Virus record (IMG/VR): IMGVR_UViG_3300028914_000001
Coordinates: 157,489-221,488 of that record
Length of the DNA stretch: 64,000 nucleotides
Strand: one strand, 5' to 3'
From: a virus
Lineage: Duplodnaviria > Heunggongvirae > Uroviricota > Caudoviricetes
The notes beneath the pieces are model-generated. The model did no database searches. It was not told the origin of the DNA and worked only from the letters and a program-made list of their open reading frames with translations. Within the stretch, counting starts at the first letter, position 1. The number at the start of each line of letters is the position of its first letter. Shown here piece by piece: positions 13,374-57,991 of this stretch. The position numbers and the translations under genes are program-made.

Positions 13374-14711
13374 ATGACTAATCGACTCAAACTATTCACC
13401 GAATCGGTTTCCCAAATGGACATAGGGCCAGCCGAGGTGAGCGCCCTCACCAAATTATTCAAGGTCTGCCTCGAAAGCGCCCTCATGCTTGATGACGAGG
13501 AGAATAAGGAGTACGATACAGACACGTCTGGATACGACTTTAGTGAAGACGACTATTATACCGGGAATAAAAATGAACGTCCAAGTATGTACGATTCCGA
13601 GTATGATGACGTTGATGAACCAGATACAAGATTGTCAGGTGAACTCCGTGACGAGCTCAAAACAGACCAGTCCATATGGCGTGACGATGACTTCGGATTA
13701 AACACACCACCAGAGCAAACAGAAAATATCGATTACGAATCAAATGTCGGAACCTCGTTGGCTAACGCTTATATCAAGTTTGCCCCCAAGTTGCTCGACA
13801 AAAAACTATGCACCGCAGAAGATGTAGACAATATGGGCAAGTTCATCGATTGGCTAATCAAAAAGTTCAAGTCCATCGACGCATCAAAGTACATGCAGCG
13901 GTTCGTCAACATGTATAGTCCAGATAACAAATCTAGGTCCAAAACGAAGAAAATCTTAGGCGATGGAGGTGAACTAGACAAGGCATTAGACTTCTTCAGC
14001 AAAGGCCAGCCAGTAATAACATTGCTGAAAGAAATCAAGAAGGATTTAGGCGATAAACTCTCGAAGGCATCTCTCTCTAGCGACTCAAACACATTCTCTG
14101 GTGCAAAGGACGACACCGACAATGCAATAGCAGGTCTTAATGAACGCCCTGACGACTCAAGCATATTCTCTGTTGCAAAGGACATCAACCGTTACGTTAC
14201 GCAAAAGTTCAACTCGGTTGATGGCGCACGAGATATCTACACAGACGATGAGTTCGCAGCGGATGACACGGGATTCGACAACAGCACAGAACTTGACGCT
14301 TACCTTCCACCAGCGGAAGATAATGTACCCATGGCAGCCGATACAAACACAATGAGCAATTACACCGAAACGAACGCCAAAAAGAACACCGAATCAGAGA
14401 CAGTCTCCGACACGAACGTCAAAGAGAACACCGAATCAGCGACCGACTCCGACAAGCGTTTTCCAGTCGACACTGACCCAAAAGATGTAGATGACGCAAT
14501 AACCAGCTTTGTTAACTTCGTCCCGACAGTAGACATCCCGGAGGCTGAGTTGAATACGTTCATCAATGAAGTTGACAACAAAAAGAGAAGCAAGGCTAAG
14601 TCCATCGCAGACAAACGTGCCAGTCTCACGCATGAACATCACGGAGATGTAGCAAACGCATCCACATTAAAGCGTGGTTCTCATATATTCGCTGGACTAA
14701 AACGTAGATAG
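13374..14711 (+). CDS. Acidic late protein with the conserved 27-aa leader; putative head-internal protein
   Basis: AGGA upstream of ATG 13374 (ATG 13368 is an alternative). Leader FTESV...FKVCLE; D/E-rich; 42-bp duplication around 14363-14452. Confidence 0.65.
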   Translation: MTNRLKLFTESVSQMDIGPAEVSALTKLFKVCLESALMLDDEENKEYDTDTSGYDFSEDDYYTGNKNERPSMYDSEYDDVDEPDTRLSGELRDELKTDQSIWRDDDFGLNTPPEQTENIDYESNVGTSLANAYIKFAPKLLDKKLCTAEDVDNMGKFIDWLIKKFKSIDASKYMQRFVNMYSPDNKSRSKTKKILGDGGELDKALDFFSKGQPVITLLKEIKKDLGDKLSKASLSSDSNTFSGAKDDTDNAIAGLNERPDDSSIFSVAKDINRYVTQKFNSVDGARDIYTDDEFAADDTGFDNSTELDAYLPPAEDNVPMAADTNTMSNYTETNAKKNTESETVSDTNVKENTESATDSDKRFPVDTDPKDVDDAITSFVNFVPTVDIPEAELNTFINEVDNKKRSKAKSIADKRASLTHEHHGDVANASTLKRGSHIFAGLKRR

Positions 14712-14725
14712 CTCCATATTTTAAC

Positions 14726-14758
14726 AAAAAATGCCGACTAAATGTCGGCATTTTTTTT
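14726..14758. terminator. Bidirectional intrinsic terminator
   Basis: aaaaaatgccgac-taaat-gtcggcattttttt between convergent genes. Confidence 0.85.
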
Positions 14759-15977
14759 ATTCAAACGATGCAGTCACCTTAGGCAGCGAGGGCTTTCCAT
14801 CCAAGTCGCTCGCATTGATGACAGGAATAGTATCATCCTTCGCTTGGCTCCTAATGTGGGCAATAAGTTTTTTCACCATTGACTTCTGGTAAGCCGAGTA
14901 GGAACCTATCTTCGACAGAGGATTCTCCGAGGCAACAAGAACTATTGATACCGCATTCTTATTTGCCGCCTCATCGTTGTATTCAAGGCCGCTGGCATAA
15001 TAGGCATCCTGGTCAAGCTGTACGAACTGCAAGAATCCAGAGTTGTTAAGTATTCCCGTCTTTGATTCGGACGCTATCTCCGGGTCCCCTTCTATCTGGC
15101 CAACAAGGTAGTGGGCACTCGATTGTGAGCCTTCCTTCATAAACTCGTCAGCCATCTCAGGGAACGTCTTTGTATCGCTGATTCCAATGATAATCTTATC
15201 AATTTTCTTGTCGAATCTCGATATGAAATTACGGCTCAACGATAGTTCAACCTCGTCAACCTTATTTCCATTAGCATCATTGATAGGCAGGAATGTTGCA
15301 CTCGGGTCCCCCTCGACTATTACTGACGGTTCGTTTGTCTTATTATCAGCCGTCGGGTTGTTGTACATCTCGATTGTCTTTTCAGACACATGCGGGATAG
15401 TCAGGTATTCACTTCCCTGATTCAGTACACCCTTTCCAACAGGCATTGCGGTAAAAATGTCTATGCTAGCCTCGGTCAATACCGCATGTTCAGCAACACC
15501 CTCATTGTTGTTAGCCCCCGTTCCTGCATTATGATATGCCTTATCGCTGGTCATCAGTATCTTGCTTTCGCCGTCCCATACGATATGGCCACCGTTAGGG
15601 CAATCTATTGTACTCATCTGTTTCGCCCTGTCGTAGTAACGCATGAATCCATCACCGCCAAGGTTGTAAACAGCGACATTAGGATACGAGTTTTTCGCCG
15701 TGTAGTTATAGTCAAAGAAACCATCCTTGGACGGAGAAACAGCAACATACCTGCCCTGTCTAATGTCCCCATCGATGAAGTACACTTTCAGATAATACCC
15801 CTTCTCCGGGACAGCATTCAGGCAAGTCATATCAGGCCGGACGAAATACTGAGCATCATCATCGATTTCGTCGGTTTCCCCAATAATTCTTGCCTGTACA
15901 CCACCCCTCAATTCAGGGTCAACCTTGTTCGTCACAACCAAGGCGTCATACAGGAAATGTTCTCTCATTTGTCCCAT
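14757..15977 (-). CDS. gp5-like baseplate hub/spike: N-terminal OB fold plus degenerate Amidase_2/PGRP domain
   Basis: ALVVTNKVDPELRGGVQARI (gp5/VgrG OB start). C-terminal IDKIII..SSAHYLV..QFV..AYYA..NKNAVSI..YSAYQ pattern. Lies downstream of baseplate genes. Confidence 0.7.
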   Translation of the reverse strand: MGQMREHFLYDALVVTNKVDPELRGGVQARIIGETDEIDDDAQYFVRPDMTCLNAVPEKGYYLKVYFIDGDIRQGRYVAVSPSKDGFFDYNYTAKNSYPNVAVYNLGGDGFMRYYDRAKQMSTIDCPNGGHIVWDGESKILMTSDKAYHNAGTGANNNEGVAEHAVLTEASIDIFTAMPVGKGVLNQGSEYLTIPHVSEKTIEMYNNPTADNKTNEPSVIVEGDPSATFLPINDANGNKVDEVELSLSRNFISRFDKKIDKIIIGISDTKTFPEMADEFMKEGSQSSAHYLVGQIEGDPEIASESKTGILNNSGFLQFVQLDQDAYYASGLEYNDEAANKNAVSIVLVASENPLSKIGSYSAYQKSMVKKLIAHIRSQAKDDTIPVINASDLDGKPSLPKVTASFE

Positions 15978-18900
15978 ATATTACCACACTGTGATGTTTC
16001 CGTATCGTCGATTTCGTAGTTCATGTTCACGCTAGTCTTACCCGTTGACGTGAAAGTTACGTTATTAACATATATTTTCCCGTGTGGAAGCTCCAAATAC
16101 TTGATGAAATCATCGAACACAACCTGAATCGGCTTGAAGCACTTGATATTCTTTATCAGGGTACTAAGCTTCTCGTCGCCAACTACACCGTTGTCGAAGT
16201 TTGCATCACTGCGGAACTTTACCTTGACGTGCGGAGTAGGAACCCACTTGCTTATCTTACCCTGTTCATAGTCGGCATTTTCACGGGCGCTAACCTGGTC
16301 TTCCTCAATGAGTTCATCATAAGGACGGTTAACATCAGTCCACATCGTGATAACCTCGGCAACAAGGCCGAAGGTTTCCATGAGCATTTCAAGACCCGGC
16401 TTAGTTCCTCCCAAAGTGTAATACTGCGGGAGGTTAGACACAGTTTCTCTCAAAGCCTTCTCACGAGCTTCCCTCGTTGCGTACATACGGTTTGAATCCA
16501 CGTCATTTTTCGCATCGGTGATGTCATATCCCATGAAACGAGCAAGGTACCCAATCAGCTCGTAGTCGATTACATTAGCATCCCTCAGATAAATCAAGCG
16601 TTCAAGTTTTTCGACCAGAGGATACTTCATGTCAGGTATTCCCTTGAATTTTTCATCCATGTCATATCTAGGTGCGACTGACGCATAGTCATGCTTAGAG
16701 TTGAACTGCGGCATAGGCTGTTCAGTCGTATCGAGATTTTCCACATACGGGCTGGCAAAGTTGTAGCTCCTGATATGGAACGGCATTACGTACGAGGATA
16801 TTCCGTTGTCGATATCCTCGGCAATCATGCGTTCGACTTCCGGGTATGTATACGGATGATACACATACTCATCAATCATTTCATCGGTGCTTGCATTGTC
16901 CCACTCGTTGTTGTGATACCTATCGACATCGAGCTTCTTGATTTTCATTATACGCTTTTCCTGACATGGTGTCCACAGACCCTTCTTTACAATATACCTC
17001 TTCGGCATGTCGTCATGAAGATTGTCGTACGCAAATACTATGTCACCTTCCTGGAACTCGTATTCACCATTGATGCAATTCAGATACTGCTTATACTGTC
17101 CCAAGGTATCGACATCGTCAAGATGCCCTTGATACGGGATATACACGCCCTTGAATACATATCCACCAAGCATGTCAATTTCATCGAGGGCCGTATCAGC
17201 GAACTTGTAATGGAACGCCTTGTCATTGATAACCGTCGATACGATTGCATTGTAGTATTTATCGTTCACATACAGAACAATCCTCGTTCCAACCTTGAAT
17301 CCATGAGGTATCTCGGTTTCCACATAACTCGCCTTGTGCTTTGTATCGATGCTATCCACGATAGGAATGCCATACTTGAATATCTCGTATGTTGACTTAC
17401 GATTAACCATAACTTCGCTGACGAGGTACTTGAACCATTTACCTTCATTGCATGTCATCTTGCAGTTGTTCACAGGGCGACCTGCCGATTCCTTGATACT
17501 CTTCGGCACAACCTTGTATGTAAACATGCGGGCAGTTGACACAGTATCGACCACAAAGCGTCCTCCAAATTCCAGAGGATATACCCCACTGATATACACG
17601 CAGCTCTTCTTTGGAACCAAGTCCATCCTGTCATGCACGACGACGGTCACGGTTTCGTTACCGTCAAACGTGATTGATTCAATCAGGTTATCATCTCCCT
17701 TTGCACTGGACGGGTTGGTCGAAGTGATGTCCATGATGTTCTGGTGGCTATACAGATAAAACGGAGTCTCGATTGTATCTCCCGAGAGCTCAGTCCAATC
17801 CATTATGCCTACCTTGTAGAATGTATCACCCACCTTCAAGACATCGCCGTCTTCAGGAGAAACCATAGAATACGAGTTCTCCAACTTGTTAGATGAACCC
17901 GATGCCCCGGTATCATAATGAAGCCATGTACTTCCTGCAAGAGGCACATGAACAGAATCAATCTTAATTCCATACACATAGTCGTCCACGACGACATCAA
18001 CCTTATGCTTGTTTCCAAGTACGGCGCCTATCCATCCGTTAGTATCATCCGTTGTAGTAGGAGCGTTCAGAATAGTAACCTTCGTATAGGGTGAATATCC
18101 GTGCTTATATGCTGTACGCACATACAGATACCCCGCCTTGTATTTCTCATCGGCCTGGTCTTCGGTATAGTAATCTATTTCAGTTATCGGATTGTATATA
18201 TCACGATATCCAGTAACAGTCACCTTTCCCGACGCCTCGATACTCTCTTCGTCATAATCAGAATGCCTTATGTATGTGAAGGTATCCTGGTCGATAACGG
18301 TAATCGTGTCAAACTCGTTTACAGGAGTGTTGAAATCAAACATTTCATACGGGCTTGCTGCTCCACTAACCCGAATCTTACTCTTGTCTGGAAGGTTATG
18401 CTTCAACGCAGTCACAGTCACCATATACGAGCCATCCTTGTTTTCGTCGGCAATCAAGCTGACTGGATATACATTCAGCGTATTAGCAAGACCTTTCAAC
18501 GCAATGCCTTCGCCAGGAATTGTACTTGCGACTGAATAGTTTTCCATATTTTTCAGGACTATGTCATTCTCTTCATACGTCGTGTAGAACTCACAGAAAC
18601 CCGTCCTAGCTTTACCCGACGTATTGTATGTCGCCATGTTCAACAGGAAGTCTCTATCCTTCCATCCAAAGATAAGTCGGTTATCGTCCGCCTTTTCAAT
18701 GAACAACCTGTTCAACACATCACTCAACTTTTTATATTGACCGACATCAACCGTATCGCCATAGTCAAGCTGGGAGGTACGGAAAACCCCCGCCATGTAA
18801 TCATTGTATATCGGTTTACGAGCAATGTCAGCAACGGTATACATGTACGGAACAATAAAATCTTTCTCAATCTCACTCTCGGTTTCGTTACCAGAGATAG

Positions 18901-21142
18901 GCTTCACCACCCGATATACGGACTTCGTATACGGCCAGTAAATCATGTCACCTACCTTGTATGCGGTTTCTTCTTCATACTTATGGACACGCATCACAAC
19001 ATTAGATTCGTCGGTATACGCACACTTCAATAGATAGGAACCGTCCGCCGGAAGCCAGTAATCCCCTGTGTAGATATCGTCATAGCGATACCTGCATTGT
19101 GCCGTATTGCTTTCAGTATCGACTTCGCCAAGTACAGCTCTCGACTTATCATCGAGCCTTGTCAGGAAAGTGAACTCAAATACACCATTCGACAGTACCG
19201 GGATAGCCTTGTCGAAATACACATGATACTTCGCACCAGCCGGGTCCATCAAAGTACACTGCTTAATCGTGTACAATTCAGGCTCTGCCGTCCGTACAAT
19301 CCCATCGTCACCAAGTTCAATCTTACTCAGTAGGCAGAAGTCTCCCGTCTCAGGAACTACTCTACTGTACATTGTCACGTCGCTGTCATCCGTAGTGTCA
19401 GCATCATATATGCCCATGGCAGCATCCATAACATACACATCAACTACCAGCGATTTCGCCTCGCTGACAGAGACCCGATTTCCATGTCCTATCGACGGGA
19501 ACTTCAACTGCGAATTGTCTTTCAGCTTTCTGAAATACGAGCGGCCTTCCGACACAGAATAACTTGCAGTGGGAACATCGAACACATCATCAAAGGCATC
19601 CTTCCATGCATCCGATTCAGTGCCGTTGTAGCGATATTCGAAATAATAGTTGCCTCCTGACTCGATTGCAATACTATCCGGGATATCCACAAAGTTCTTT
19701 GGCTTTACGTTAATATAGTAATCGCTATCATTCGGGTCTTCCGCATAGCTGTACATATTCTCGAAACGAAGTTCCCCAATTTTCTTATTACTCCTAGTAG
19801 TGAATGGATAAACAGTATCGCCTTCGGCGACCTTATCCACATTTATCGAAGCGCTCGGGTCCCATTCTATTATCGAGGTCGTCTTTGAATAGTCGTATCC
19901 AAGATGAGAATATGATAGAGCATACTTGTATAGACGATTCGGCGATGTCATGACCCTCACTCGGGACATCCCGCTGTTAAGGTCTATCGGAGTCCTAAAC
20001 CTTATTCTCATTACGTTTCCGCACGGCTCAGTTTCAAGCTTATAAGCCCCAGATAGAGTAATATCGTTTACACCACTGGTGCCGATAACCTCATTGCTCT
20101 CAATCATGAACGTGTCGCCTACATTGAGGTTCACTACATTGGACAACGTCAAATAACCGAACCTAGACTGCGACGGGTTCAAGTCATCAGGGATGAACTC
20201 TACCTTTTCTATTCTGTATTCCTGATAAATGTACGAATCCTTTCCGTTGACAAACTCGTACAGCTCCTTGAAATAGAATATTCCTGTCGGAGTATCACCG
20301 TTCCATTCGAAAATACCACGGTTACTAACACTATCAATGAAAATCGTGTTTGAAGAACCTGTATTTCCGAGGTAGTTGTACAAGTCAACATCTATGGTGT
20401 CAGTACCGATTTCCTCTCTATATTTAGACGAGGCATTTTCGACATCGTTAATCGTGACATCAAACTTGATACTGTACACATTGGCATTGTTAACCTGGCC
20501 GACAAAGGATACCACTACCTCGCTCACATCTTTTGGAATAAACTTAATCAGTCTGGGCGCACCGTTAATCATCTTGTTCAGCGTATTCTTGAACGGGTCC
20601 TGAGATGTCCTCATCGGGTCAAGAATAAGCATGTTATCCGCCTTATTGACATAATACGGATAAACACTATTATCCTTGAACTGGATATAGACGACATCGC
20701 CATCCTTTGACGGGTCACCATCAGGATTACCCCGCATCATATTCCTGAGTACATCCAGCGAAATCGTTTCACTGAACTCTCCTTCATAGTAGATATTATT
20801 CTTAGTATAATCCAATGCACCTATCGTATTGTATGTTGCGTTGGTTCTCGGGAGAGACAGATAGTACACATAAAGGTTGTTGCTATCGCATGCCGACAGT
20901 TTCTTCGCAAACTCGTCGATGCGCTTCTTCATTTCCTTAGCCGTACTCTCGGTCGCAAAATAGTTGAACGTAAACCTTGTAGAATCTTCAAGGTTCCTGT
21001 AAGCGTTATTCAGGTAATCACTGAACAACTGCATAAGCGTAACAACGTCCTCTTCTTCCTTCAAGAAGTCAGGGACATAGTTCATGAAATCTACGAAGCG
21101 GAACAAACCGCCATCATTCACTGCAATAGGATTCTTTGCCAT
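15965..21142 (-). CDS. Large baseplate wedge protein (gp7-like) with repeated beta-barrel modules
   Basis: N-terminal FMNYVPDFL..LFSDYL; C-terminal LIGYLARFMGYD..LPQYY..GTKPGLEML (tail protein I-like); repeated T-x-x-x-H-G/N...V..V.D..TFTY units; follows gp6. Confidence 0.65.
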   Translation of the reverse strand: MAKNPIAVNDGGLFRFVDFMNYVPDFLKEEEDVVTLMQLFSDYLNNAYRNLEDSTRFTFNYFATESTAKEMKKRIDEFAKKLSACDSNNLYVYYLSLPRTNATYNTIGALDYTKNNIYYEGEFSETISLDVLRNMMRGNPDGDPSKDGDVVYIQFKDNSVYPYYVNKADNMLILDPMRTSQDPFKNTLNKMINGAPRLIKFIPKDVSEVVVSFVGQVNNANVYSIKFDVTINDVENASSKYREEIGTDTIDVDLYNYLGNTGSSNTIFIDSVSNRGIFEWNGDTPTGIFYFKELYEFVNGKDSYIYQEYRIEKVEFIPDDLNPSQSRFGYLTLSNVVNLNVGDTFMIESNEVIGTSGVNDITLSGAYKLETEPCGNVMRIRFRTPIDLNSGMSRVRVMTSPNRLYKYALSYSHLGYDYSKTTSIIEWDPSASINVDKVAEGDTVYPFTTRSNKKIGELRFENMYSYAEDPNDSDYYINVKPKNFVDIPDSIAIESGGNYYFEYRYNGTESDAWKDAFDDVFDVPTASYSVSEGRSYFRKLKDNSQLKFPSIGHGNRVSVSEAKSLVVDVYVMDAAMGIYDADTTDDSDVTMYSRVVPETGDFCLLSKIELGDDGIVRTAEPELYTIKQCTLMDPAGAKYHVYFDKAIPVLSNGVFEFTFLTRLDDKSRAVLGEVDTESNTAQCRYRYDDIYTGDYWLPADGSYLLKCAYTDESNVVMRVHKYEEETAYKVGDMIYWPYTKSVYRVVKPISGNETESEIEKDFIVPYMYTVADIARKPIYNDYMAGVFRTSQLDYGDTVDVGQYKKLSDVLNRLFIEKADDNRLIFGWKDRDFLLNMATYNTSGKARTGFCEFYTTYEENDIVLKNMENYSVASTIPGEGIALKGLANTLNVYPVSLIADENKDGSYMVTVTALKHNLPDKSKIRVSGAASPYEMFDFNTPVNEFDTITVIDQDTFTYIRHSDYDEESIEASGKVTVTGYRDIYNPITEIDYYTEDQADEKYKAGYLYVRTAYKHGYSPYTKVTILNAPTTTDDTNGWIGAVLGNKHKVDVVVDDYVYGIKIDSVHVPLAGSTWLHYDTGASGSSNKLENSYSMVSPEDGDVLKVGDTFYKVGIMDWTELSGDTIETPFYLYSHQNIMDITSTNPSSAKGDDNLIESITFDGNETVTVVVHDRMDLVPKKSCVYISGVYPLEFGGRFVVDTVSTARMFTYKVVPKSIKESAGRPVNNCKMTCNEGKWFKYLVSEVMVNRKSTYEIFKYGIPIVDSIDTKHKASYVETEIPHGFKVGTRIVLYVNDKYYNAIVSTVINDKAFHYKFADTALDEIDMLGGYVFKGVYIPYQGHLDDVDTLGQYKQYLNCINGEYEFQEGDIVFAYDNLHDDMPKRYIVKKGLWTPCQEKRIMKIKKLDVDRYHNNEWDNASTDEMIDEYVYHPYTYPEVERMIAEDIDNGISSYVMPFHIRSYNFASPYVENLDTTEQPMPQFNSKHDYASVAPRYDMDEKFKGIPDMKYPLVEKLERLIYLRDANVIDYELIGYLARFMGYDITDAKNDVDSNRMYATREAREKALRETVSNLPQYYTLGGTKPGLEMLMETFGLVAEVITMWTDVNRPYDELIEEDQVSARENADYEQGKISKWVPTPHVKVKFRSDANFDNGVVGDEKLSTLIKNIKCFKPIQVVFDDFIKYLELPHGKIYVNNVTFTSTGKTSVNMNYEIDDTETSQCGNIWDK

Positions 21143-21151
21143 TTTCGCCCC

Positions 21152-23752: not shown

Positions 23753-23776
23753 AATAAACTGCCTTTATTTCACAAA

Positions 23777-23786
23777 ATAGTTTATA
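23777..23786 (-). promoter_or_regulatory. Late promoter box TATAAACTAT (baseplate operon)
   Basis: Exact motif 24 nt upstream of the gp6 ATG. Confidence 0.75.
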
Positions 23787-23810
23787 ATCTGGTACGACTT
23801 TCAGACCATG

Positions 23811-23854
23811 AAAAAAGGCGGCGTAAATATATACACCACCTTTTAGAATTTATT
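23811..23854 (-). terminator. Intrinsic terminator
   Basis: aaaaaaggcggcgta...tacaccacctttt imperfect hairpin that pairs with G-U on the minus strand. Confidence 0.55.
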
Positions 23855-23864
23855 TCAGTTATTA

Positions 23865-25340: not shown

Positions 25341-25371
25341 TTTCTTCCTCGTAAAACGATTCATTATACAC

Positions 25372-25381
25372 ATAGTTTATA
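25372..25381 (-). promoter_or_regulatory. Late promoter box TATAAACTAT
   Basis: Exact motif about 31 nt upstream of ATG 25340. Confidence 0.75.
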
Positions 25382-25403
25382 GGATTTAATCAACTGTTAA
25401 AAA

Positions 25404-26795: not shown

Positions 26796-26797
26796 TG

Positions 26798-29574: not shown

Positions 29575-29622
29575 ATAGTTTATAATGTAGTGGCATGAAT
29601 TCCCGCAAGCAATATAAACTAT
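29575..29622. promoter_or_regulatory. Divergent pair of late boxes (29575-29584 minus, 29613-29622 plus)
   Basis: atagtttata and tataaactat separated by 28 nt. Confidence 0.8.
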
Positions 29623-43598: not shown

Positions 43599-43696
43599 AA
43601 TAGTAACCCTTAAAATTCAATAATAAATTACATTTTTTAACAAAACGGAAATGTCGGACAGTTTCCTGCCCGACATTGAGGTATCTATGTCCAATA

Positions 43697-45115: not shown

Positions 45116-45136
45116 ACTTTACTCCTTAATGTTGAT

Positions 45137-45185
45137 AATATAGTATACATGATAGGGTCTGTCAAGCCAAAAAAGTATAAACTAG
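45137..45185. promoter_or_regulatory. Divergent promoters: sigma70-like TTGACA-17-TATATT (minus, rnh) and late TATAAACTAG (plus, 45176-45185)
   Basis: Canonical -35 at 45160-45165 and -10 at 45137-45142; late box 21 nt before ATG 45207. Confidence 0.75.
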
Positions 45186-45206
45186 AGATAATTACGAGGT
45201 TATCCC

Positions 45207-48200: not shown

Positions 48201-48320
48201 GGTGAAGCCAACAAGCTTAACGGAAAGAATAGACACTTGACTTCTGGAAAGGTATTGTCAGACATCGCCGCACACCAAATGGCACATGTTACAGCGAATT
48301 CGAAAAAAAGAACCCGCTAG
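45207..48320 (+). CDS. Hypothetical 1037-aa late protein, probably virion-associated
   Basis: Long ORF, GAGG upstream, late box; no motif recognised. Confidence 0.6.
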   Translation: MFTTLQKEYAILFYIRYKLGQEDNNGFLHELYTEKNVKSILEKLVNNKTKDTSTISTEQVVERVLPSVNIDTLTNPRATHPKFNVLPYNPVSFMELYMGKTINNVLMNMKERIFVDDITDAKDGMAAYFVSIFSRNMMVNDNFAKFATIEQHPSADKIVHTLRTQFPDSYLANDTEALSKYATQMVRENFTHKDLGTVIMYLQKKFGNSLNRTSIVNAIASASKYKENDDDTTFDEIRDTAEESTMAMVQSTSSIDNMFKTSAKYRFSGTMKYKRGAKDSSGNTAPNTIELSLRKQDMEGKLHIDCFTQFITVLNKLLHLEGLPGVNTSQYNSLNTVLLSEEQYHALFPEYFVTVGILKTKEKTASEMGTTTMKSGDESTNIIDRYTGEDEDKYDSEDEETYDSSVLTLGKTKKLMLAKMLATLNGHPETVPDQIESAKGKKSAIYELNRIFITELFNSPYPTIQALVGFLTHDELPPDMESHDDELFILRQKYLKDNAEDAKVFGERDTNVKAFATVLSELSKAAHMGPNDRLPSQNIVISNGANQYVLTGLPSVVNAMVAHAIKGQYIDGITVTSKNPIYDAINFLIKSNLLRKNGKTYVLVTDANQINSVVDSLPWKQLETLHHTMMVTALHNCSYLYKQNGWVKMTPQESSRHEYEKIKDDAKTKDDFYFTGKLVKIMESVQGNVKPYFDDLRDINDVIARIKMDYGITSVEPAQAPTVDENTLSVNDRVIQMFSTDDSSEAIDSLSQDYYLRSVESKYEEIVDKKCKEVTAALRQNKHLDEDTRKALIRKFGHVGGKTKIINRVFDGVKKSASGNVAEKFNKQDEQRMFQIAQDVIRLYNFVRNDVEKHNPTIAKEFPQTRQYVQSADLDTMSKGQSLTGKNYIENGSAVDKDFLLNAYLIDVLFETIYLMTILFDLPARTEYSVQDIMQMSDVSEMIRYIKENMNIAMEGNMVYTQLLTAIKRKSNILFNSPMLNIIIAVMLSNPDLKQLSVGEANKLNGKNRHLTSGKVLSDIAAHQMAHVTANSKKRTR

Positions 48321-50065: not shown

Positions 50066-50222
50066 AATAAATGGATAAACTAGGGGTGAAATTGATGTTT
50101 TTCTAAACTAAAATATCTTTTTTACACCCGAAGTTTATATTTTAATATAAAAAAATGAGAACATATAGTGTTACCTGGAGGCAAAGGAGATAAAATTTCT
50201 ATGAAACTTTCGTATTGGACGC

Positions 50223-50251
50223 TTGACAAAACTTCACTTTTATTGTAGCTT
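50223..50251 (+). promoter_or_regulatory. sigma70-like promoter TTGACA-17-TAGCTT, near-leaderless
   Basis: Canonical -35; ATG 8 nt after the -10. Confidence 0.65.
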
Positions 50252-50259
50252 TAGCGACG

Positions 50260-51804
50260 ATGAATTCGAACCTTGAACTTTCTTTACGTATTTTAGACCA
50301 GTTTTCCGAAACTGACAGCCGTTACTCTTTCGATAAAATGCTGATTCCTAACAGTATTTTTGACTTCATGATGGCTAAAGCGGAAAATCTCAAAGGTGTG
50401 GAAAGGAAAAACTTCGAATTTTTGCTGTATATAGTCAACACGGTATATCGCCGCTACCAGATAGCCTTCAACCTGGCTACCAAGCATAACTGGAAAATCG
50501 ATATTGACAAGTGGGCAGTCCCCATTTACTCCAAAATCTATGACAGGATACTCGGTTCCAACTACTTGGAATACGTACACATTCTCGAACAATGGGGCAT
50601 CATTGGCCGTAGCCGTTCCTACATCAAGGGAAGCAAGGATATTCCGGGAAAATGCAAGCATTATTGGTTCACACCCAAGTTTTTAACCTATGTTCAGCGT
50701 TATTTGCACACTAGGGCACAGGAAGAAGCCGGAGATATCAAGAAAAGAAAGGGTGGTGTCCGTGTAGTCATGGTGACCAACCCCCGTCTTTATCGAAAAT
50801 TGGCCGAAAGAGCCGAAGAAGTTCATTCAGAACAAATGAACATGCCTGAAATTAAGGAACTTTACGAAGACTTGACGCATTTTAGCATCGATGAAGACGA
50901 AAGTTACGATATTTTGGGCAATCTTGTCGATAGCGGTTCGATTCCCGTCGAAAGATTGACCTCTGAAATGAACAAAGTCAAGCTTTTCAATAGCTACACG
51001 ACCGATAAATACGCTCTTTACTGCAAACGTGACCCGTATGGCCGTGTTCATACTAACATCACCCAGTTGAAAAAAGAGGTTAGAAAGAGCTGCATCTACT
51101 GTGATGGCAAGCCGACGGTCGAAATCGACATCAAGAGTTCTCAGGGTGCATTCTTGTATCGTGTTCTTGACCGATACATTTCTAATTTTGATGGCCGAGA
51201 ACATATTGTGATTTCTCCTAAGGGAGAGAATTCGGAAGCCTACTGGAATTCCTTTGAGGAAGACGAATGCATCTCGGCATTCCACTCCGAATTGGATAGA
51301 TACAGAAATCTGCTTGTTTCTGGTGGTTTGTATGAATACTTCCTTAACTATGTAAACAAAACTTTGCATACGAATGTAGACCGTAATAAGGTAAAGAAAG
51401 AATTCCTTACATGCCTTTTCTGCGGACGTTTCTATTCTAAGAAAAAGCATAAGCTTGTCGAAGCCATTCAGAAGCTCTGGAAGGAAGCATTCCCTAACCT
51501 CTACAAGGCAATCCAGATTATCAAGCGTGGGCACTACTCTGAGTTGGCCCATGAGCTGCAACGTACTGAAAGCCACCTCATTTTCAGCGTGGTTTATCGC
51601 AGAATCAAGGACGAATTGCATTGCCCTGTTTGTACCGTACACGATAGCATCATAGTGTCCTCCGATGTTGCTACCCGTGCCAAGCAAATCTTCGACGACG
51701 CTTTGAAGGAATTGGAAATCCCTACCTTTACCGAGCAGGAACAGATGGAAGCAACGATTGAAGACACCTTTATTGCTGACAAGACCTTGACAACCAAGAT
51801 TTAA
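50260..51804 (+). CDS. wHTH plus PolA/T7-RNAP-superfamily palm-domain protein without exonuclease domains
   Basis: DPYGRVH (DxxGR), motif A EIDIKSSQ, motif B RNKVKKEFLTCLF, LQRTES, motif C TVHDSI. Confidence 0.7.
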   Translation: MNSNLELSLRILDQFSETDSRYSFDKMLIPNSIFDFMMAKAENLKGVERKNFEFLLYIVNTVYRRYQIAFNLATKHNWKIDIDKWAVPIYSKIYDRILGSNYLEYVHILEQWGIIGRSRSYIKGSKDIPGKCKHYWFTPKFLTYVQRYLHTRAQEEAGDIKKRKGGVRVVMVTNPRLYRKLAERAEEVHSEQMNMPEIKELYEDLTHFSIDEDESYDILGNLVDSGSIPVERLTSEMNKVKLFNSYTTDKYALYCKRDPYGRVHTNITQLKKEVRKSCIYCDGKPTVEIDIKSSQGAFLYRVLDRYISNFDGREHIVISPKGENSEAYWNSFEEDECISAFHSELDRYRNLLVSGGLYEYFLNYVNKTLHTNVDRNKVKKEFLTCLFCGRFYSKKKHKLVEAIQKLWKEAFPNLYKAIQIIKRGHYSELAHELQRTESHLIFSVVYRRIKDELHCPVCTVHDSIIVSSDVATRAKQIFDDALKELEIPTFTEQEQMEATIEDTFIADKTLTTKI

Positions 51805-51836
51805 TAAACTATATTTGTGGAAAAAGGACTAATATC

Positions 51837-52826
51837 ATGGATATCCAATACTTCAAAAACCCTAACATGAACGTGCTCAACTGCACACACTATGACCTTG
51901 ATGGAGTGGGGTCCCATCTTATCATCAAGACAATCTTTCCTAACGCAAAGTACGCCAAGATGTACTACGGCAAGGATAATGACCTCTTGACATTCAACAC
52001 TATTCCTAACAAGGAACAGTACAACGCCATCATCTTTACCGATTATACGCCAGTAAAATTCATGGACAGTGTTCGTGCAACTGGCATTCCTACCATGGTT
52101 CTTGACCACCATGCTAGCGCATCTGATTTCAACGACCCGGCTAATGCAATCATTATCGACAAGTCTGCTTGCGGCGCCCGTCTTGCCTATGATTTCTACC
52201 GTGATGTCAAGGATATTTCCCACCTCGAAGAACTCATCAATTATATCGACACGTTTGACCGTTGGATTAGAACCGATAAGGCACGATTCGAACATGCATA
52301 CAAGATGAACATGCTGTTCAAGGACAAGTACAAGCTCAATTTCGATGCTTGGATTGAAGCCTACAAGGATGGCCATACCGAATTCACGGAAGATGAAATT
52401 GCTTTCCTCAACCAGATTGACAGTGAAGTTGAACAGACATACAATAATCTGCAGTTTACAGACCTTCCTGGTGGCGGTGTATTGACCCGTTGCGACAAGC
52501 ATTCGACAGAAGTCGGTATTCGTATTCAGGACAGCGAAAAGTATAACTACTGGATTAACATCTATAATAACAAGCGTGAAAACAAAATCGGTTTGATGTT
52601 CCGTGGATATAACCCGAACATTTCCTTTGACAAGTTTGCTAGAAAGATTGAAATTCATGTTCCTGGCTCGAACATGGGTGGACACGGACTGTCATGTGGA
52701 GGCAAGGCCGATAATGAGACTGATGCAATGCGAATGGTCGCCATGTCAATCCCGTACATTCAGCAGCAGATTGACGGCACCTTTGTACAGGACGAAGAAA
52801 TGCTGAGTAAGCCTGACGAAATATAA
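51837..52826 (+). CDS. DHH-family phosphoesterase
   Basis: THYDLDG, FTD, LDHH, SACGA, GGH; AATAAACTAT upstream at 51803. Confidence 0.88.
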   Translation: MDIQYFKNPNMNVLNCTHYDLDGVGSHLIIKTIFPNAKYAKMYYGKDNDLLTFNTIPNKEQYNAIIFTDYTPVKFMDSVRATGIPTMVLDHHASASDFNDPANAIIIDKSACGARLAYDFYRDVKDISHLEELINYIDTFDRWIRTDKARFEHAYKMNMLFKDKYKLNFDAWIEAYKDGHTEFTEDEIAFLNQIDSEVEQTYNNLQFTDLPGGGVLTRCDKHSTEVGIRIQDSEKYNYWINIYNNKRENKIGLMFRGYNPNISFDKFARKIEIHVPGSNMGGHGLSCGGKADNETDAMRMVAMSIPYIQQQIDGTFVQDEEMLSKPDEI

Positions 52827-52856
52827 ACTCTTGGTGCAAAAACCCAAGCAGTCAAC

Positions 52857-53984
52857 ATGAAAATTCTACAAATCAGGACGGTGCTTGCAACCGTCCTTCT
52901 TTCTTTATGTATCGGCCAGGTTTATGCCTGGTCTCTTCTATCCAACGCTGTCAACTCGGTTCTAAACCACGACATGTCGTTCGCCTTCTCTCTTGCCATC
53001 CTGTTCCTCGGCCTGTCTGCAGCTTTCATGGGAAAGTTCGTGGAAAGAAACCCGAAGGCGACCTACATCATGTCCGTGATTTTCTTCGTTGCCGGATTCC
53101 TCCTAAGTGGATTCGCTTGCAGCGTAGGAAGCGTCGGGATGTTCTATGCATCGTATGGCGTACTCTTCGGATGCGCATGCGGTCTCGGGTATGTAGCCCC
53201 AATCAAGACGCTGATGCTCTACTTCCGTCATAACAAGGCTGTCGCATCTGCCATTGCCATCCTATCGTTCGGGTTGGCAAAGTCTGTTGCAAGTCCGCTG
53301 TACACATACCTTACCTCAACCTATGCTATCGACCAAGTGTTCTATCTCCTTGCTCTAATCTATACTGTTCCGCTTATCGTGACATCGTTCCTGTTCAGGA
53401 AGTTCCCGGTCAATTACAAACCACCTATGGTCGAGACAATCGATATCGGAAAGACGGTTAGAACATTGCCTTACATTTCAATCTGGTTGTTCTTCTTCCT
53501 CAACATCGCTTGCGGCCTAGCCTTCATCAGTCAGGAAGCTCAACTATATTCCCACTATGGCGTGGCAATCGGGATGGCAACCTTGCTGTGTACATTGAGT
53601 GCTGTTTTCAATGCTGGCGGGCGTTTTGGGTTTGCTTGGATTAGCGACAAGTTCGGTCGATACGTTCCGTACATCATCCTGTTCGCATTGAGTTCCCTGC
53701 TGTGCTTGATTAACTTTGGATTTGCTGGACTGGGCCTGTTCGTTGTCAGCGTCATGCTCATCAACGCTTGTTATGGCGGAGGTTTCTCCGCTTTGCCTGC
53801 ACTGCTCGCAAGCAAGTACGGGATAACGAATACATCAACCATCCATTCTCTGACATTGAGCGCTTGGGGTATTGCAGGAATTGCTTCACTCTTCTTGAAG
53901 CAGCTCCCGGTTGATACCTTGTTCATCACATGCTTCATACTGTATGGCTTCAACCTTCTGTTGCTGTACCTGAGCAAACGATAA
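52857..53984 (+). CDS. MFS transporter, oxalate/formate antiporter (OFA)-like
   Basis: GQVYAWS, AFSLAILFLGLSA, GLGYVAPIKTL, NAGGRF..SDKFGR, YGGGFS; about 11-12 hydrophobic segments. Confidence 0.85.
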   Translation: MKILQIRTVLATVLLSLCIGQVYAWSLLSNAVNSVLNHDMSFAFSLAILFLGLSAAFMGKFVERNPKATYIMSVIFFVAGFLLSGFACSVGSVGMFYASYGVLFGCACGLGYVAPIKTLMLYFRHNKAVASAIAILSFGLAKSVASPLYTYLTSTYAIDQVFYLLALIYTVPLIVTSFLFRKFPVNYKPPMVETIDIGKTVRTLPYISIWLFFFLNIACGLAFISQEAQLYSHYGVAIGMATLLCTLSAVFNAGGRFGFAWISDKFGRYVPYIILFALSSLLCLINFGFAGLGLFVVSVMLINACYGGGFSALPALLASKYGITNTSTIHSLTLSAWGIAGIASLFLKQLPVDTLFITCFILYGFNLLLLYLSKR

Positions 53985-53997
53985 ACTATATGTAATT

Positions 53998-54639
53998 ATG
54001 AATGACTTACTGAAAACCTATAAGACGTTTGTCGATTCGGTCTATGCCAACTTTGGCAAGGCTGCTGCAAAACCCATTATCAGAGAAGGGTTCAAAGCGT
54101 TATGTGAAGCTATTGACGATAACATGGTCAAGCTGGTCGAGTACCTAAATCAACCAGCTGCTACGCCAATACATAACTCTGATGGCGTTCTGATGACAGG
54201 GCGTAAGGCTTTCAACTACTTCGAGAACGCCTCTATAAAAGAAGGAATGTGGGGTGTTCATTTTACCTACCTAGAACCATTCTATTATATATTGGAAGAG
54301 GGGTTTTCTAACGGAACGACTAATTTGGACCAACTTGCCTATACAGGAAACTACGAAGGTGGGCGAGGAAAGGATGGATGGTTCTTTGCACTTCCATTAG
54401 ATAGCAAATACTTGAAGTCGTATGACATGGGTTACGGTGACTACGGGTTCCTTATAAAGACTGATTGCGTATTGGTTGACCACTTGGGCGATGGTGATAC
54501 TGAGATGTTGTTCCGTGGCAGTGATGTAATTGAAATGATACCTTTCTATTACGACGAAGACTCCGAGATGTGGATATCAAAGTCCGACGGGGCTGAATAC
54601 GCTACTCTTGAAGAGTTAATCGCTAAGTACGCCAAATAA
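53998..54639 (+). CDS. Leader-bearing late protein with an ADP-ribosyltransferase-like signature
   Basis: Leader FVDSV...FKALCE; VHFT..ILEEGF..WFFA..YG..DTE; GATAAACTAT at 53980. Confidence 0.45.
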   Translation: MNDLLKTYKTFVDSVYANFGKAAAKPIIREGFKALCEAIDDNMVKLVEYLNQPAATPIHNSDGVLMTGRKAFNYFENASIKEGMWGVHFTYLEPFYYILEEGFSNGTTNLDQLAYTGNYEGGRGKDGWFFALPLDSKYLKSYDMGYGDYGFLIKTDCVLVDHLGDGDTEMLFRGSDVIEMIPFYYDEDSEMWISKSDGAEYATLEELIAKYAK

Positions 54640-54659
54640 GTGGATTGTTACCTGTTTTC

Positions 54660-54689
54660 AGCCGACCTGCAATAGTGGTCGGCTTTTTT
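54660..54689 (+). terminator. Intrinsic terminator
   Basis: agccgacc...ggtcggctttttt. Confidence 0.75.
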
Positions 54690-54740
54690 GTTGCTGGAAT
54701 AATATATTTTAAGCTAGAATAAAGATTGGAGGAAACCGAT

Positions 54741-55193
54741 ATGGTATCGGCTGGCCTTTTGATAACAGACGGCGAGAAGTTCCTTGTGGAGCTGCCGTTG
54801 CACCAGACTCCTGGTGAACACCATTTTGATTTGCCCAAGGGTCACGTCGAGGATTTCGACAGTGACTTTAGGGGCACTGCGTTTAGAGAAGCTAAGGAAG
54901 AGACTGGTTACGATTTTGACTCTTATAAGGACCGTGCATACGCATTGTGTAATGAACCTGTCAGCTACATCAAGGGCAAGCAGATTGTCCTGTACCGTCT
55001 CGACCTGACGAAAGAAGAGATGCCTAGTATCGGCGAGTACAAGTGCCAGAGTTTCTTCCCGGACAAGAGGACGGGCAAGAATGTTCCTGAGGTTATTGGC
55101 TATGCCTACAAGCCGCTTTCCGAAATCAGGAAGTGGCTCTTCAAGGGTTATAGCCGCACGTTTGACAGGCTCGGTATTTTCAAGGAAGGATAA
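54741..55193 (+). CDS. nudE: Nudix hydrolase, T4 NudE-like (no leader)
   Basis: DLPKGHVE...AFREAKEETG Nudix box; GGAGG before ATG 54741. Confidence 0.85.
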   Translation: MVSAGLLITDGEKFLVELPLHQTPGEHHFDLPKGHVEDFDSDFRGTAFREAKEETGYDFDSYKDRAYALCNEPVSYIKGKQIVLYRLDLTKEEMPSIGEYKCQSFFPDKRTGKNVPEVIGYAYKPLSEIRKWLFKGYSRTFDRLGIFKEG

Positions 55194-55693
55194 TGTCACT
55201 GTTTGAAGTCATCGTCTATTCGCTCGGGATATTCCCCATGCTCCTTGTACTCGGAATGATTGCGAGGGAGTGGTGGGTGTTCCGTAAGAATAGGGTTAAG
55301 GGAAGCTCTAAGACCAAGGGCGAGCCGCCTACACCAGTTCTCCCGAAGGCAGAGTTAGCAAAGTCTGATTTCGATGACATAGCGAAGAAAAAGCGGGAGG
55401 TCGAACTCGCCGCAGAGATACGCCGCATCCTTGCCAAGTCGGTTACACGTCAGGGCGAAGGTGAATACGACTTCGACGCAAACAAGCTTACCGCAGTTGA
55501 ATACCAGCTTCTTTTGAACTATGCCAAATCCCGCAAGGAGGAACTTAATTCCTATGTGGAGATGTGCAACAAGATAAGTGAAGAACCCGAAGCTGATTGC
55601 AGCGAGGAAATGAAATTGATTTACGGAAACATCGGCCTTATCGAATTGGCTAAATTCGTCGAGGCTTTCTCTGACAAAGCAAATCGTTGGTAA
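55193..55693 (+). CDS. Hypothetical membrane-anchored protein
   Basis: N-terminal hydrophobic helix followed by WWVFRK. Confidence 0.6.
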   Translation: MSLFEVIVYSLGIFPMLLVLGMIAREWWVFRKNRVKGSSKTKGEPPTPVLPKAELAKSDFDDIAKKKREVELAAEIRRILAKSVTRQGEGEYDFDANKLTAVEYQLLLNYAKSRKEELNSYVEMCNKISEEPEADCSEEMKLIYGNIGLIELAKFVEAFSDKANRW

Positions 55694-57063
55694 TGGAGGC
55701 AAAAATGAACAACGATAAATACCTAAACATAATGGAATTCCTGGCAAAGGCGCTTTATGATGTCGGTGCCACGGTAAAGCATATCTACAAGGAAGAGCAT
55801 CCTGCGATTCCGCCTATCCCGACGACGCCGCAGCCAGTGCCGCCTAGTCCGCCTAGGTACACTGTCGAACAGGAAATCCCTTTCCCGCCAGCGCCGAATT
55901 GCCCGCCACCCGTGGTGGTCAGACAGCCAGAACGCTATGGTGGTCTTGGTTTCAAACCGCTTATGAAGCCGAAGGAACCCTGGTTTGATAAGCAACGTCC
56001 GATACCTGGCCCGAACCAGTTCTGCAACATGCAGGACTACACCTTCCAGCAGTTGAACGGTAATGTCCCGGCGGAAGCTACCATCTTGGCTGACCCGTTC
56101 ATGAAACCGAACCAGAAAGTGAATCTTGAATCGAATCCCGATTATTTTGGCTTTGACCATAACAAGAACACCCCAATACGGATGAAAACCATGGTTGACA
56201 CCGCTGATGGACACCCAGAGCCGATTGGCAATCTGATTAAGGAACACCCGGCGGCTCTTGACGCAGCTAAAACCAATGTGCAGAAGATGAATCCATCCCT
56301 CGGTATTTGTCAGAACCTGAGCAACGGTAAGATAGAACGGGAAATCGAGTCCCTTACCAAAGCGTTGAACGATATGACTCTTATGGGCAAACCGGGTTCT
56401 ATGAGCGAGGTGTCCAATAAGCTCGTCGGCCTAACTTTTGCTCGTACCTATCTCAACTTCCTGCCGAATGAAACTGGAAAGAAATTCATTGTTAACGAAC
56501 TCAAAGATAATCCAGTTGCACTCAAGGCTTTCAACGATGCCGTCGACGAGAATGAAGGAATGAGAGCTAAGGCTATTGCTGAGCGTCAATATGAAAGTCA
56601 ACGTGTCATGTCGCAACGTGGTATCAGTATCGGAAAGGATTTAAAAGCCTCGATGGACAATTTCTATAGCCCTAAGCCAGATGAACTTATGGCTAAGCAG
56701 GTAGACTTTCCGACAACTCCGCAAGACTTAATCAAAGCTGCCATGACAAAAAAATACCTGAAAAGCATCGACGCAAAGAAAACCGTAGGTAAAATGACCG
56801 ATATGCTGGATACATGCAACAACTTGGCTAAATCTCCCGCAATACCTGGAAACGAGGCAATGAAGGAAGCCGAAATGTCGCTGACCGAGGAAAACTTGAA
56901 GAAGGATGCATCGGAGATAAAGGCAGATGACCGTCCAGTAATACCTGAAAAAGAGGAAACTCCCGATGCTCCGGCTGAACAGCCGAAAGAAAACGTCAAG
57001 GAAAAGAAATTGAAAGCGAAAGCTAAGGAACAGAAAACATTAGCCAATTCTAACAAGGAGTAA
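55687..57063 (+). CDS. Proline-rich hypothetical protein
   Basis: 458-aa ORF with PPIPTTPQPVPPSPP; start uncertain. Confidence 0.55.
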   Translation: MVMEAKMNNDKYLNIMEFLAKALYDVGATVKHIYKEEHPAIPPIPTTPQPVPPSPPRYTVEQEIPFPPAPNCPPPVVVRQPERYGGLGFKPLMKPKEPWFDKQRPIPGPNQFCNMQDYTFQQLNGNVPAEATILADPFMKPNQKVNLESNPDYFGFDHNKNTPIRMKTMVDTADGHPEPIGNLIKEHPAALDAAKTNVQKMNPSLGICQNLSNGKIEREIESLTKALNDMTLMGKPGSMSEVSNKLVGLTFARTYLNFLPNETGKKFIVNELKDNPVALKAFNDAVDENEGMRAKAIAERQYESQRVMSQRGISIGKDLKASMDNFYSPKPDELMAKQVDFPTTPQDLIKAAMTKKYLKSIDAKKTVGKMTDMLDTCNNLAKSPAIPGNEAMKEAEMSLTEENLKKDASEIKADDRPVIPEKEETPDAPAEQPKENVKEKKLKAKAKEQKTLANSNKE

Positions 57064-57066
57064 AAA

Positions 57067-57336
57067 ATGGCAACGAAGAAAACGAAGACCTATAACTTTG
57101 GAAAAGCACTTGAAGCCTTGAAGGGCGGTAAAACTATCCGTCGTCAGGGTTGGAACGGAGTCGGTATCTTTATCGCTCTCCAAGTTCCCGATAAGAAGTC
57201 CAAGATGAGCCAGCCGTACCTCTACATCGACACCCTCGGTTTGCAGACGACAAACCCGAAGGCTCCGAAGGGTCGTGTACCGTGGGCACCGAGCCAGACT
57301 GACCTGCTTGCCGAAGACTGGGAAATCATCAAGTAG
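57067..57336 (+). CDS. tad2: DUF2829 / Thoeris anti-defence Tad2-like sponge
   Basis: NFGKALEALKGGK.IRR.GWNG...PY.YI...VPW.PSQTDLLAEDW. Confidence 0.85.
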   Translation: MATKKTKTYNFGKALEALKGGKTIRRQGWNGVGIFIALQVPDKKSKMSQPYLYIDTLGLQTTNPKAPKGRVPWAPSQTDLLAEDWEIIK

Positions 57337-57355
57337 GAATTTTCCCCACACAAAT

Positions 57356-57383
57356 AAAGCCTCCGTGTTACACGGGGGCTTTT
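57356..57383. terminator. Bidirectional intrinsic terminator
   Basis: aaagcctccgtg-tta-cacgggggcttt between convergent genes. Confidence 0.75.
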
Positions 57384-57406
57384 CTGATGTTTCACGTGGA
57401 ACAATT

Positions 57407-57991
57407 TTAGAACTTGATACCTTCCCTCTTGAAGGTCTTGTCAAACTCTGGCCATAGCCACTTGCCTATTTCCTTCAATGGAAGATATTCGTAGGAGCAT
57501 GCTTCTGGCATTGCGGCGTTCTTCTTAGGGTCATGGAAGTATGACTTGCAGGAATAAGATGTCAACGGTGGAAGCTCTTTCAGATTTATCCTGTAAAGCA
57601 TCAGGTTGTTTCCTTTACGGAATGGCACCTGCTTGCGGAAAATTCCCTTGGCATCGTTGTAATACTTATGCCAGTTGTACCCGGTTTCTTCCAACGCTTC
57701 CCTGAATGCGGCATCTTTTACACTTTCGCCATCGTTCTCGACGTGGCCTTTCGGTAGGTCATACTGGTGTGGCTTTCCCTTCTTGTTTCCTGTCGGAAGT
57801 TCTGCAAGGAATACTTCACCATCGGTGATGAGAAGTCCAGACGAGCATGACGGATGTTCCTCATTGTTTCTCGGGTCTGCAAATTCAAGCAGGGTCTTGG
57901 CTAAATCCTTGACAGCTTCAAACTGTGCCTTTGATGCAAGTATATGCTTGGCTGACTCGTTGAATGTATCTATGACATATTGTGGGGTCAT
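57407..57991 (-). CDS. Nudix hydrolase paralogue with a 47-aa N-terminal extension containing the leader
   Basis: DLPKGHVE...AFREALEETG; leader FNESA...LAKTLLE; late box at 58017-58026. Confidence 0.85.
   Translation of the reverse strand: MTPQYVIDTFNESAKHILASKAQFEAVKDLAKTLLEFADPRNNEEHPSCSSGLLITDGEVFLAELPTGNKKGKPHQYDLPKGHVENDGESVKDAAFREALEETGYNWHKYYNDAKGIFRKQVPFRKGNNLMLYRINLKELPPLTSYSCKSYFHDPKKNAAMPEACSYEYLPLKEIGKWLWPEFDKTFKREGIKF

Follow-up and report, generated by a model that had tools for sequence, protein, structure and literature searches.

A 64,000-nucleotide window of a large virus genome (bases 157489-221488 of an IMG/VR record of 422,150 bp, with 46.5% G+C and direct terminal repeats, estimated to be complete) encodes three proteins with unrelated bodies, the products of genes A, B and C, that share an N-terminal leader of about 33 residues (30-40 among carriers). 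Profile searches identify this leader in at least 25 proteins of the same genome. The leader is probably a capsid-targeting, protease-removed propeptide that acts like the capsid-targeting sequence (CTS) of phage T4, in a long hairpin version; the loading of the tagged proteins into the head, their cleavage and their injection are inferred from the T4 analogy. Positions given below are those of the window unless they are marked as positions in the genome.

The leader and the prohead protease

The leaders of the three genes are found at the nucleotides where an earlier sequence-only reading of this DNA had placed them, and their 27-residue cores align without gaps:

13368-14711 (+): gene A, 447 aa, leader and an acidic body of no known family (alternative ATG at 13374)
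13395-13475 (+): leader core of gene A, 27 residues, from the invariant Phe to the predicted P1 Glu
53998-54639 (+): gene B, 213 aa, leader (subtype ending ..G-F-x-A-L-C-E) and a weakly ADP-ribosyltransferase-like body
54028-54108 (+): leader core of gene B, 27 residues
57407-57991 (-): gene C, 194 aa, leader, short linker and Nudix hydrolase; the gene is flanked by two terminator-like hairpins
57884-57964 (-): leader core of gene C, 27 residues

The search set consisted of all 5,023 stop-to-stop open reading frames (ORFs) of the 422-kb genome, and the hidden Markov model (HMM) was run with all filters off. An HMM built from the three cores alone identifies two more N-terminal copies, with E-values of 0.0018 and 0.017, and further weaker ones. 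The carrier set was assembled by iterating the HMM and inspecting the ORFs located behind late boxes (one of the 25 members was not used as a seed), and the final search retrieves at least 25 carriers, all with E-values of 7e-7 or better, whereas the next match has an E-value of 0.3. Decoy sets of reversed and shuffled ORFs never beat an E-value of about 1-4. Thus, the sequence-only reading was right to expect that an HMM made from the three leaders would reveal more late genes with unrelated bodies in the genome, and that shuffled controls would not score equally.

The matches start 3-11 residues past a Met, a residue that lies outside the HMM. In the 25-row alignment, this Met and the Phe are invariant, and a Glu is found exactly 26 residues past the Phe in 20 of the rows. 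At these positions, Phe is encoded by TTT in 13 cases and by TTC in 12, and Glu by GAA in 15 cases and by GAG in 5. Because synonymous codons vary freely at invariant positions, the constraint acts on the peptide and not on the DNA or RNA.

Pooling the 25 carriers with 123 database representatives gives a wider profile of 148 sequences. Behind the initial M and 2-10 variable residues, this profile reads [LI]-F-x-E-S-[IV]-x-K-L-G-L-S-x-x-Q-x-E-A-[VI]-x-x-[LI]-x-K-[AV]-C-[FL]-E; an A/S/G residue and a stretch rich in Asp and Glu come next, and hydrophobic positions recur every 3-4 residues on either side of a G-L-S/T/P turn. In it, Met1 and the Phe are present in 100% of the sequences, the Glu in 92% and a P1' residue of the A/S/G type in 83%. 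The end of the leader takes the form C/L-[FLMY]-E, with A/S/G next and an acidic linker after it. The sequence-only reading had envisaged a T4-type cut site of the form (L/I)-x-E; the terminal Glu holds but the (L/I)-x-E form does not, given that P2 is hydrophobic in 100% of the sequences of the wider profile and P3 is Cys in 68% (Leu in 18%). The two-helix leader proposed in the same reading agrees with the AlphaFold model of gene B, obtained with ten homologues, which predicts one helix over residues 3-19, a second over residues 21-38 that is closed by the Glu, and an alpha/beta body behind them. A subtype of the leader, ..G-F-x-x-L-C-E, is represented by gene B and by the gene at genome 309606(-), and is clearest in a more distant relative (68% capsid-protein identity), where three strong copies are detected. 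No Pfam or PHROG family spans the leader.

A prohead protease of the gp21 type is encoded just before the window, and the window itself contains the capsid and portal genes:

Genome 154229-154729 (-): Peptidase_S77 (gp21) prohead protease, PF03420, E 8e-14, above the curated cut-off
58101-59594 (-): major capsid protein, gp23 family (Pfam Gp23, E 4e-64)
59746-61449 (-): portal protein, gp20 family (Pfam Portal_T4, E 2e-68)

Judging by these profile matches, the region with the capsid and portal genes is the head-gene region of a T4-like phage. Downstream of the S77 protease gene (also delimited as genome 154229-154960, -) lies a 317-aa scaffold-like gene (genome 153083-154036, -), and one of the carriers, a 245-aa protein with a C-x-C...C-x-H motif, is encoded immediately upstream of this protease-scaffold pair. 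In the T4 gene order, prohead-core genes are kept at the matching place. The start of the capsid protein is the Met at 59594 and not one of the upstream ATGs of the long ORF, as fixed by 26 distinct relatives, and the N-terminal region of the protein contains two hydrophobic-hydrophobic-Glu sites that are kept in all 26. An alignment to mature T4 gp23* equates the T4 maturation site with the first of these Glu sites, around residues 38-40 when numbering begins with the Met at 59594; the second one is located about 12 residues past the first. The capsid protein, which is the presumed natural substrate of the protease, therefore carries sites of the kind seen at the leader's end. A search with Pfam Gp23 did not find a gp24-like second capsid copy, a further known protease substrate. 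The T4-like processing context assumed by the sequence-only reading is compatible with these observations: the genome encodes a gp21-type protease, and the Glu site of the leader resembles the conserved sites of the capsid propeptide.

Late boxes, bodies and leaderless paralogues

Each of the three genes follows a short box with the core ATAAACTA, a putative late promoter that resembles the T4 late promoter TATAAATA. As had been noticed earlier, the box lies shortly upstream of each gene, ending 20, 9 and 26 nt before the ATG of genes A, B and C, respectively:

13339-13348 (+): box TATAAACTAT before gene A, ATAAACTA core at 13340-13347
13302-13309 (-): second box, back to back with that of gene A, serving a divergent 1653-aa gene
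53980-53989 (+): box GATAAACTAT before gene B, ATAAACTA core at 53981-53988
58017-58026 (-): box TATAAACTAT before gene C, ATAAACTA core at 58018-58025

The window contains 15 copies of the core where 1.8 would be expected, and the whole genome 63 where 19 would be expected; for the ten-base form TATAAACTAT, 40 copies are seen against 1.4 expected. Behind 56 of the 63 ATAAACTA boxes, an ORF starts within 70 nt, and about 24 of those ORFs bear the leader. About 20 of the 25 carriers sit behind ATAAACTA, and the remainder are encoded just downstream of other late genes. The same box also stands before large structural genes. Paired boxes on opposite strands, back to back and about 30 nt apart, are found before divergent late genes at 13302-13347 and 29576-29621. 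The region upstream of the capsid gene (59595-59745, -) contains a terminator-like hairpin and a variant box, AATAAACTTA, which is not the consensus.

The bodies of the carriers are almost entirely unrelated to each other: with the first 45 residues cut off, BLAST relates a single pair out of 300. The bodies annotated by Pfam include the Nudix hydrolase (gene C), SLT lytic transglycosylase, Amidase_2, WG repeats, PG_binding_1 and PG_binding_3, and a weaker 26th candidate carrier contains a SPOR domain; for most of the remaining bodies, there is no family in Pfam or PHROGs. The predicted mature sizes range from about 3 to 146 kDa, and the isoelectric points (pI) of the bodies from 4.1 to 9.9.

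The sequence-only reading had described the bodies of genes A, B and C as an acidic protein, an ADP-ribosyltransferase (ART)-like protein and a Nudix enzyme, respectively, and the first and the last of these descriptions hold. The gene A body has a pI of 4.5, consists of Asp and Glu to 21%, and has no match in Pfam, PHROG or the ESM Atlas. The gene C body matches the Pfam NUDIX family (PF00293) with an E-value of 1e-9 (39 bits against a cut-off of 21), and the sequence R-E-A-L-E-E-T-G, which contains the R-E-x-x-E-E part of the Nudix box, is invariant across the gene C orthologues and the paralogue. The ART-like label of the gene B body is a weakly supported lead. A Foldseek search of the PDB with the gene B model yields no match at an E-value of 0.001 or better; in a VIA-align comparison, the top rows are almost all ART-fold proteins, and the best Z score of 5.2 falls short of the value of about 8 that the tool itself gives as its guide level. 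Gene B has 12 homologues, every one of them in related phages, and among the homologues His88, Tyr115 and Glu169 are invariant. Immediately upstream of gene B, the ORF at 52857-53984 (+) encodes a 375-aa multi-pass membrane protein that, judging by its translation alone, is MFS-type-transporter-like.

The position of gene C directly 3' of the capsid gene is kept in close relatives. Among seven close orthologues of gene C, there are 14 variable columns in the first 22 residues compared to 7 in the 145-residue body (Fisher p = 3e-10), and helix 2 and the cut site are nearly fixed. Thus, the start of the gene C tag (57925-57991) evolves much faster than its cargo. Gene B shows no contrast between leader and body variability of this kind. 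Gene C adjoins, in convergent orientation, an 89-aa gene (57067-57336, +) with a match to the Pfam Tad2-like domain (Thoeris anti-defence 2; E 2e-22).

The tag had been proposed to be modular, and this proposal gains support from leaderless paralogues of the Nudix and amidase proteins, which begin where the leader ends. The relevant features are the following:

54660-54690 (+): hairpin and T-run 3' of gene B, read directly in the sequence; the consensus scan did not list it
54741-55193 (+): leaderless Nudix paralogue of gene C (Pfam NUDIX, E 8e-8)
Genome 118571-119302 (-): leaderless Amidase_2 with an SH3-like tail, inside a late operon, among a run of leader-bearing genes

Because the hairpin and T-run follow gene B, this gene looks like a single-gene cassette that consists of a late box, the gene and a terminator. 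The Nudix paralogues are 45% identical between residues 44-192 of gene C and residues 2-151 of the other ORF (numbered from a TTG start at 54726, which makes the ATG at 54741 residue 6), and the alignment begins where the leader and linker of gene C stop. The leaderless Nudix gene is placed behind the hairpin and T-run, with no ATAAACTA box upstream; the consensus scan lists no sigma-70-like early promoter for it, and its early timing is an assumption. The Nudix pair recalls the packaged Alt and the early-made ModA and ModB of T4. The leaderless Amidase_2 is 31% identical to the tagged amidase encoded at genome 274844-275959 and is a probable endolysin. Its location within a late operon indicates that late expression alone does not predict the tag.

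Distribution of the leader and nested genes

A profile search of 1.84 billion representative proteins identifies 128 clusters at an E-value of 0.001 or better, with proteins of 50-2875 residues. In 94 of the 127 clusters that were retrieved, the leader is located at residue 1-3; in another 22, it is internal but starts on a Met. Pfam analysis of the 123 representatives finds PG_binding_3 in 14 and PG_binding_1 in 10 of them, along with single cases of Amidase_2, SLT, WG repeats, DUF2501 and Fib_succ_major. The presence of the last of these, the Fibrobacter succinogenes major domain, in one leader protein may hint at the host of some relatives.

IMG/VR contains 62 related loci with capsid-protein identities of 61-98%, and the contigs that bear them are in many cases 200-420 kb long. 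The nearest capsid-protein match in the 50,697 deposited phage genomes is only about 30% identical, and a megablast search with the region gives no match. A tblastn search of the 50,697 records with one leader returns only chance-level matches (Staphylococcus and Lactococcus phages, E 2 or worse); at the sensitivity of this one-leader search, no leader is found in cultured phages. In the literature on rumen jumbo phages, no report of this leader was found. In a 355-kb relative (68% capsid-protein identity), the 27-position HMM yields one match; with the longer profile, the leaders of this relative are seen to have diverged to the gene-B-like subtype, and the ATAAACTA late box is not enriched there.

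Most of the 22 clusters with an internal leader belong to one subfamily, represented by the gene at genome 359681-361492 (-). This subfamily comprises at least 19 clusters with one layout: most open with a common N-terminal module of about 60-75 residues, followed by a variable middle part (0 to about 430 residues), a conserved junction of the form [Y/D]-K-L-[L/I]-G-E-[S/T], the leader and a body that again varies. This junction corresponds to an in-frame reading of the late box; for the replacement of Tyr by Asp, the expected TAT-to-GAT change (compare GATAAACTAT) would keep ATAAACTA intact. This layout fits nested genes, in which a shorter, tagged version of a long protein would arise from an internal late promoter; a polyprotein in which the cut module is internal would fit as well. 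The locus 5944-7290 (+) of a distant relative (69% capsid-protein identity) encodes a 449-aa ORF with two tandem leaders, the second of which starts on an internal Met at about residue 278; this ORF may be either a cargo polyprotein or two fused genes.

Proposed function, known packaging systems and alternatives

Taken together, these features suggest the following scheme for a CTS-like propeptide. Late promoters would express the leader on at least 25 unrelated proteins, and its amphipathic helix-turn-helix of about 33 residues would attach to the core of the prohead during assembly, or to the inside of the shell, enclosing the attached cargo. The gp21-type (S77) protease would then cut after the near-invariant Glu (with Cys or Leu in P3, Phe, Leu, Met or Tyr in P2, and Ala, Ser or Gly in P1'), and the freed mature cargo would stay in the head until, at the next infection, it leaves together with the DNA. 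Among the proteins loaded in this way would be the Nudix hydrolase, a possible ART, a lytic transglycosylase, an amidase, peptidoglycan-binding proteins and many orphans, up to 146 kDa.

In T4, the CTS is present on the internal proteins IPI, IPII, IPIII and Alt, and gp21 removes it (Mullaney and Black 1996, reviewed in PMC9026906, PMC3012670 and PMC5694885). It is an N-terminal propeptide of 10-19 residues that attaches to the core, brings in unrelated and also foreign proteins, and is cut off afterwards behind (L/I)-x-E (PMC9026906, PMC3012670, PMC5694885). Similarly to the CTS, the leader described here is an N-terminal tag on unrelated late proteins with a predicted Glu cut site at its end, and similarly to T4, the genome contains a scaffold-like gene and encodes an S77 protease of the gp21 family together with a capsid protein and a portal of the T4 type. 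As with the packaged ART Alt of T4, the cargo includes enzymes that likely act on the host early, and the cargo set varies between relatives. In contrast to the handful of such proteins in T4, there are at least 25 carriers per genome, with cargo of up to 146 kDa, and many of these bind or cut peptidoglycan.

Several observations weigh against this explanation. The leader is three times longer than the T4 CTS, is predicted to form a helix-turn-helix and has no significant sequence similarity to it. The leader ends in C/L-[FLMY]-E, with mostly Cys in P3 and a hydrophobic residue in P2, unlike the (L/I)-x-E of T4, and 5 of the 25 carriers lack the Glu at the fixed position. The confidence of the AlphaFold model over the leader is moderate (pLDDT 68-83). 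Many carriers contain peptidoglycan-binding or -cleaving domains, which would also fit a role in the tail or the envelope. Finally, the leader lies inside a longer frame in one subfamily, so that a free N-terminus may not be required.

For the jumbo phages phiKZ and SPN3US, we know of no single conserved propeptide sequence that is portable across unrelated bodies. In these phages, long N-terminal propeptides on many inner-head and ejection proteins are cut after Glu by a gp21-related protease (PMC5694885, PMC10052503, PMC7411985). Like the present virus, these are jumbo phages, and their propeptides are longer than those of T4 and presumably target proteins to the prohead; unlike the leader, however, the propeptides reach more than 100 residues (PMC5694885). 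The cleavage motif there is A/S/G-x-E, and the capsid and scaffold genes are not of the T4 type. Another parallel is provided by DarB, a large anti-restriction protein of phage P1, for which, to our knowledge, neither a cargo family sharing its signal nor a shared cleavage motif is known. For the packaging of DarB, its first 30 residues are enough (PMC9024508). As proposed for the leader, an N-terminal stretch of about 30 residues thus sends a reporter into the capsid, but no sequence relation between the two was found. The helix-loop-helix coat-binding domain of the P22 scaffolding protein and the cargo-loading peptides of encapsulins bind inside an HK97-fold shell, enclosing the attached cargo; these elements are found at the C-terminus, with no protease cutting them off, and their likeness to the leader is a functional analogy only.

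A tentative alternative, which we regard as possible, is that the hairpin is a scaffold-like cargo-loading domain that binds the shell or the core directly, as a part of a two-track effector scheme with an ejected periplasmic conduit. Such a scheme is suggested by the existence of leaderless Nudix and amidase paralogues and of nested genes with an in-frame late box: one copy of an effector, without a usable tag, would serve the current infection, whereas a second, late, tagged copy would be pre-loaded for the next one. The tagged peptidoglycan-binding proteins would build the ejected periplasmic conduit. If true, this would amount to an unusually large injected proteome for a T4-type myovirus.

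In the main competing explanation, the hairpin would dock its carriers to a late structure other than the head interior, such as the tail or baseplate or a periplasmic ejection conduit, and might not be cleaved at all. The many carriers with cell-wall domains (SLT, Amidase_2, PG_binding_1, PG_binding_3 and SPOR) are compatible with docking, and so is the location of several large carriers (539-1357 aa) among tail- and baseplate-sized late genes. Docking as such, however, does not call for a near-invariant Glu at a set spacing, with a small residue and then an acidic stretch behind it. Moreover, cytoplasmic-type enzymes (the Nudix protein and the ART-like fold) bear the same tag, one carrier is encoded in the protease-scaffold module, and the capsid propeptide conserves sites of the same form. 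We therefore consider docking unlikely.

Slightly less probable still is a role of the leader as a pro-domain, either removable or autoinhibitory, or as an oligomerisation domain, in which it would control activity or co-assembly of the bodies without targeting them to the capsid. The hairpin is amphipathic, some of the tagged enzymes (the amidase, the transglycosylase and the possible ART) could harm the producing cell, and a leaderless amidase also exists, all of which is compatible with such control. It is hard to see, however, how one 33-residue hairpin would inhibit 25 unrelated folds, small acidic orphans included. A pro-domain also leaves the prohead-protease-type site unexplained; in T4, that protease works inside proheads (PMC9026906).

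An export, lysis-timing or lipoprotein-type signal to the envelope, for which the frequent peptidoglycan-related bodies and the conserved Cys three residues before the end of the leader could be cited, is rejected as very improbable. Charged and polar residues alternate with hydrophobic ones throughout the leader, and because there is no hydrophobic core, it is not a Sec, Tat or lipobox signal; in particular, the absence of a hydrophobic signal core rules out the lipobox reading of the conserved Cys. In addition, the probable endolysin (the leaderless Amidase_2 of the late operon) has no leader, and Nudix-type bodies act on cytoplasmic substrates. Finally, chance or compositional resemblance, or an RNA or translation-start element, might be suspected given that the pairwise identity among leaders is only about 20-40%, but this possibility is refuted by the decoys (E 1 or worse, compared to 1e-9 to 1e-17 for carriers), by the variation of synonymous codons, which rules out conservation at the RNA level, and by the presence of the pattern in 128 clusters, mostly at residue 1.

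The packaging principle itself is established for T4; the new details are the hairpin form of the signal, the size of the cargo set, the tagged and untagged paralogue pairs, and the nested genes. Given the conserved Cys in P3 and the hydrophobic residue in P2, the specificity of the S77 protease may have shifted. If the leader is indeed a CTS-like propeptide, this phage clade would pre-load dozens of unrelated proteins, enzymes and very large proteins among them, far beyond the T4 record. The leader would then directly single out candidates for injected effectors and for anti-defence proteins in an uncultured group of phages, most of them without a known family, and a 33-residue portable tag with a built-in release site would be a useful packaging handle, as the T4 CTS has been.

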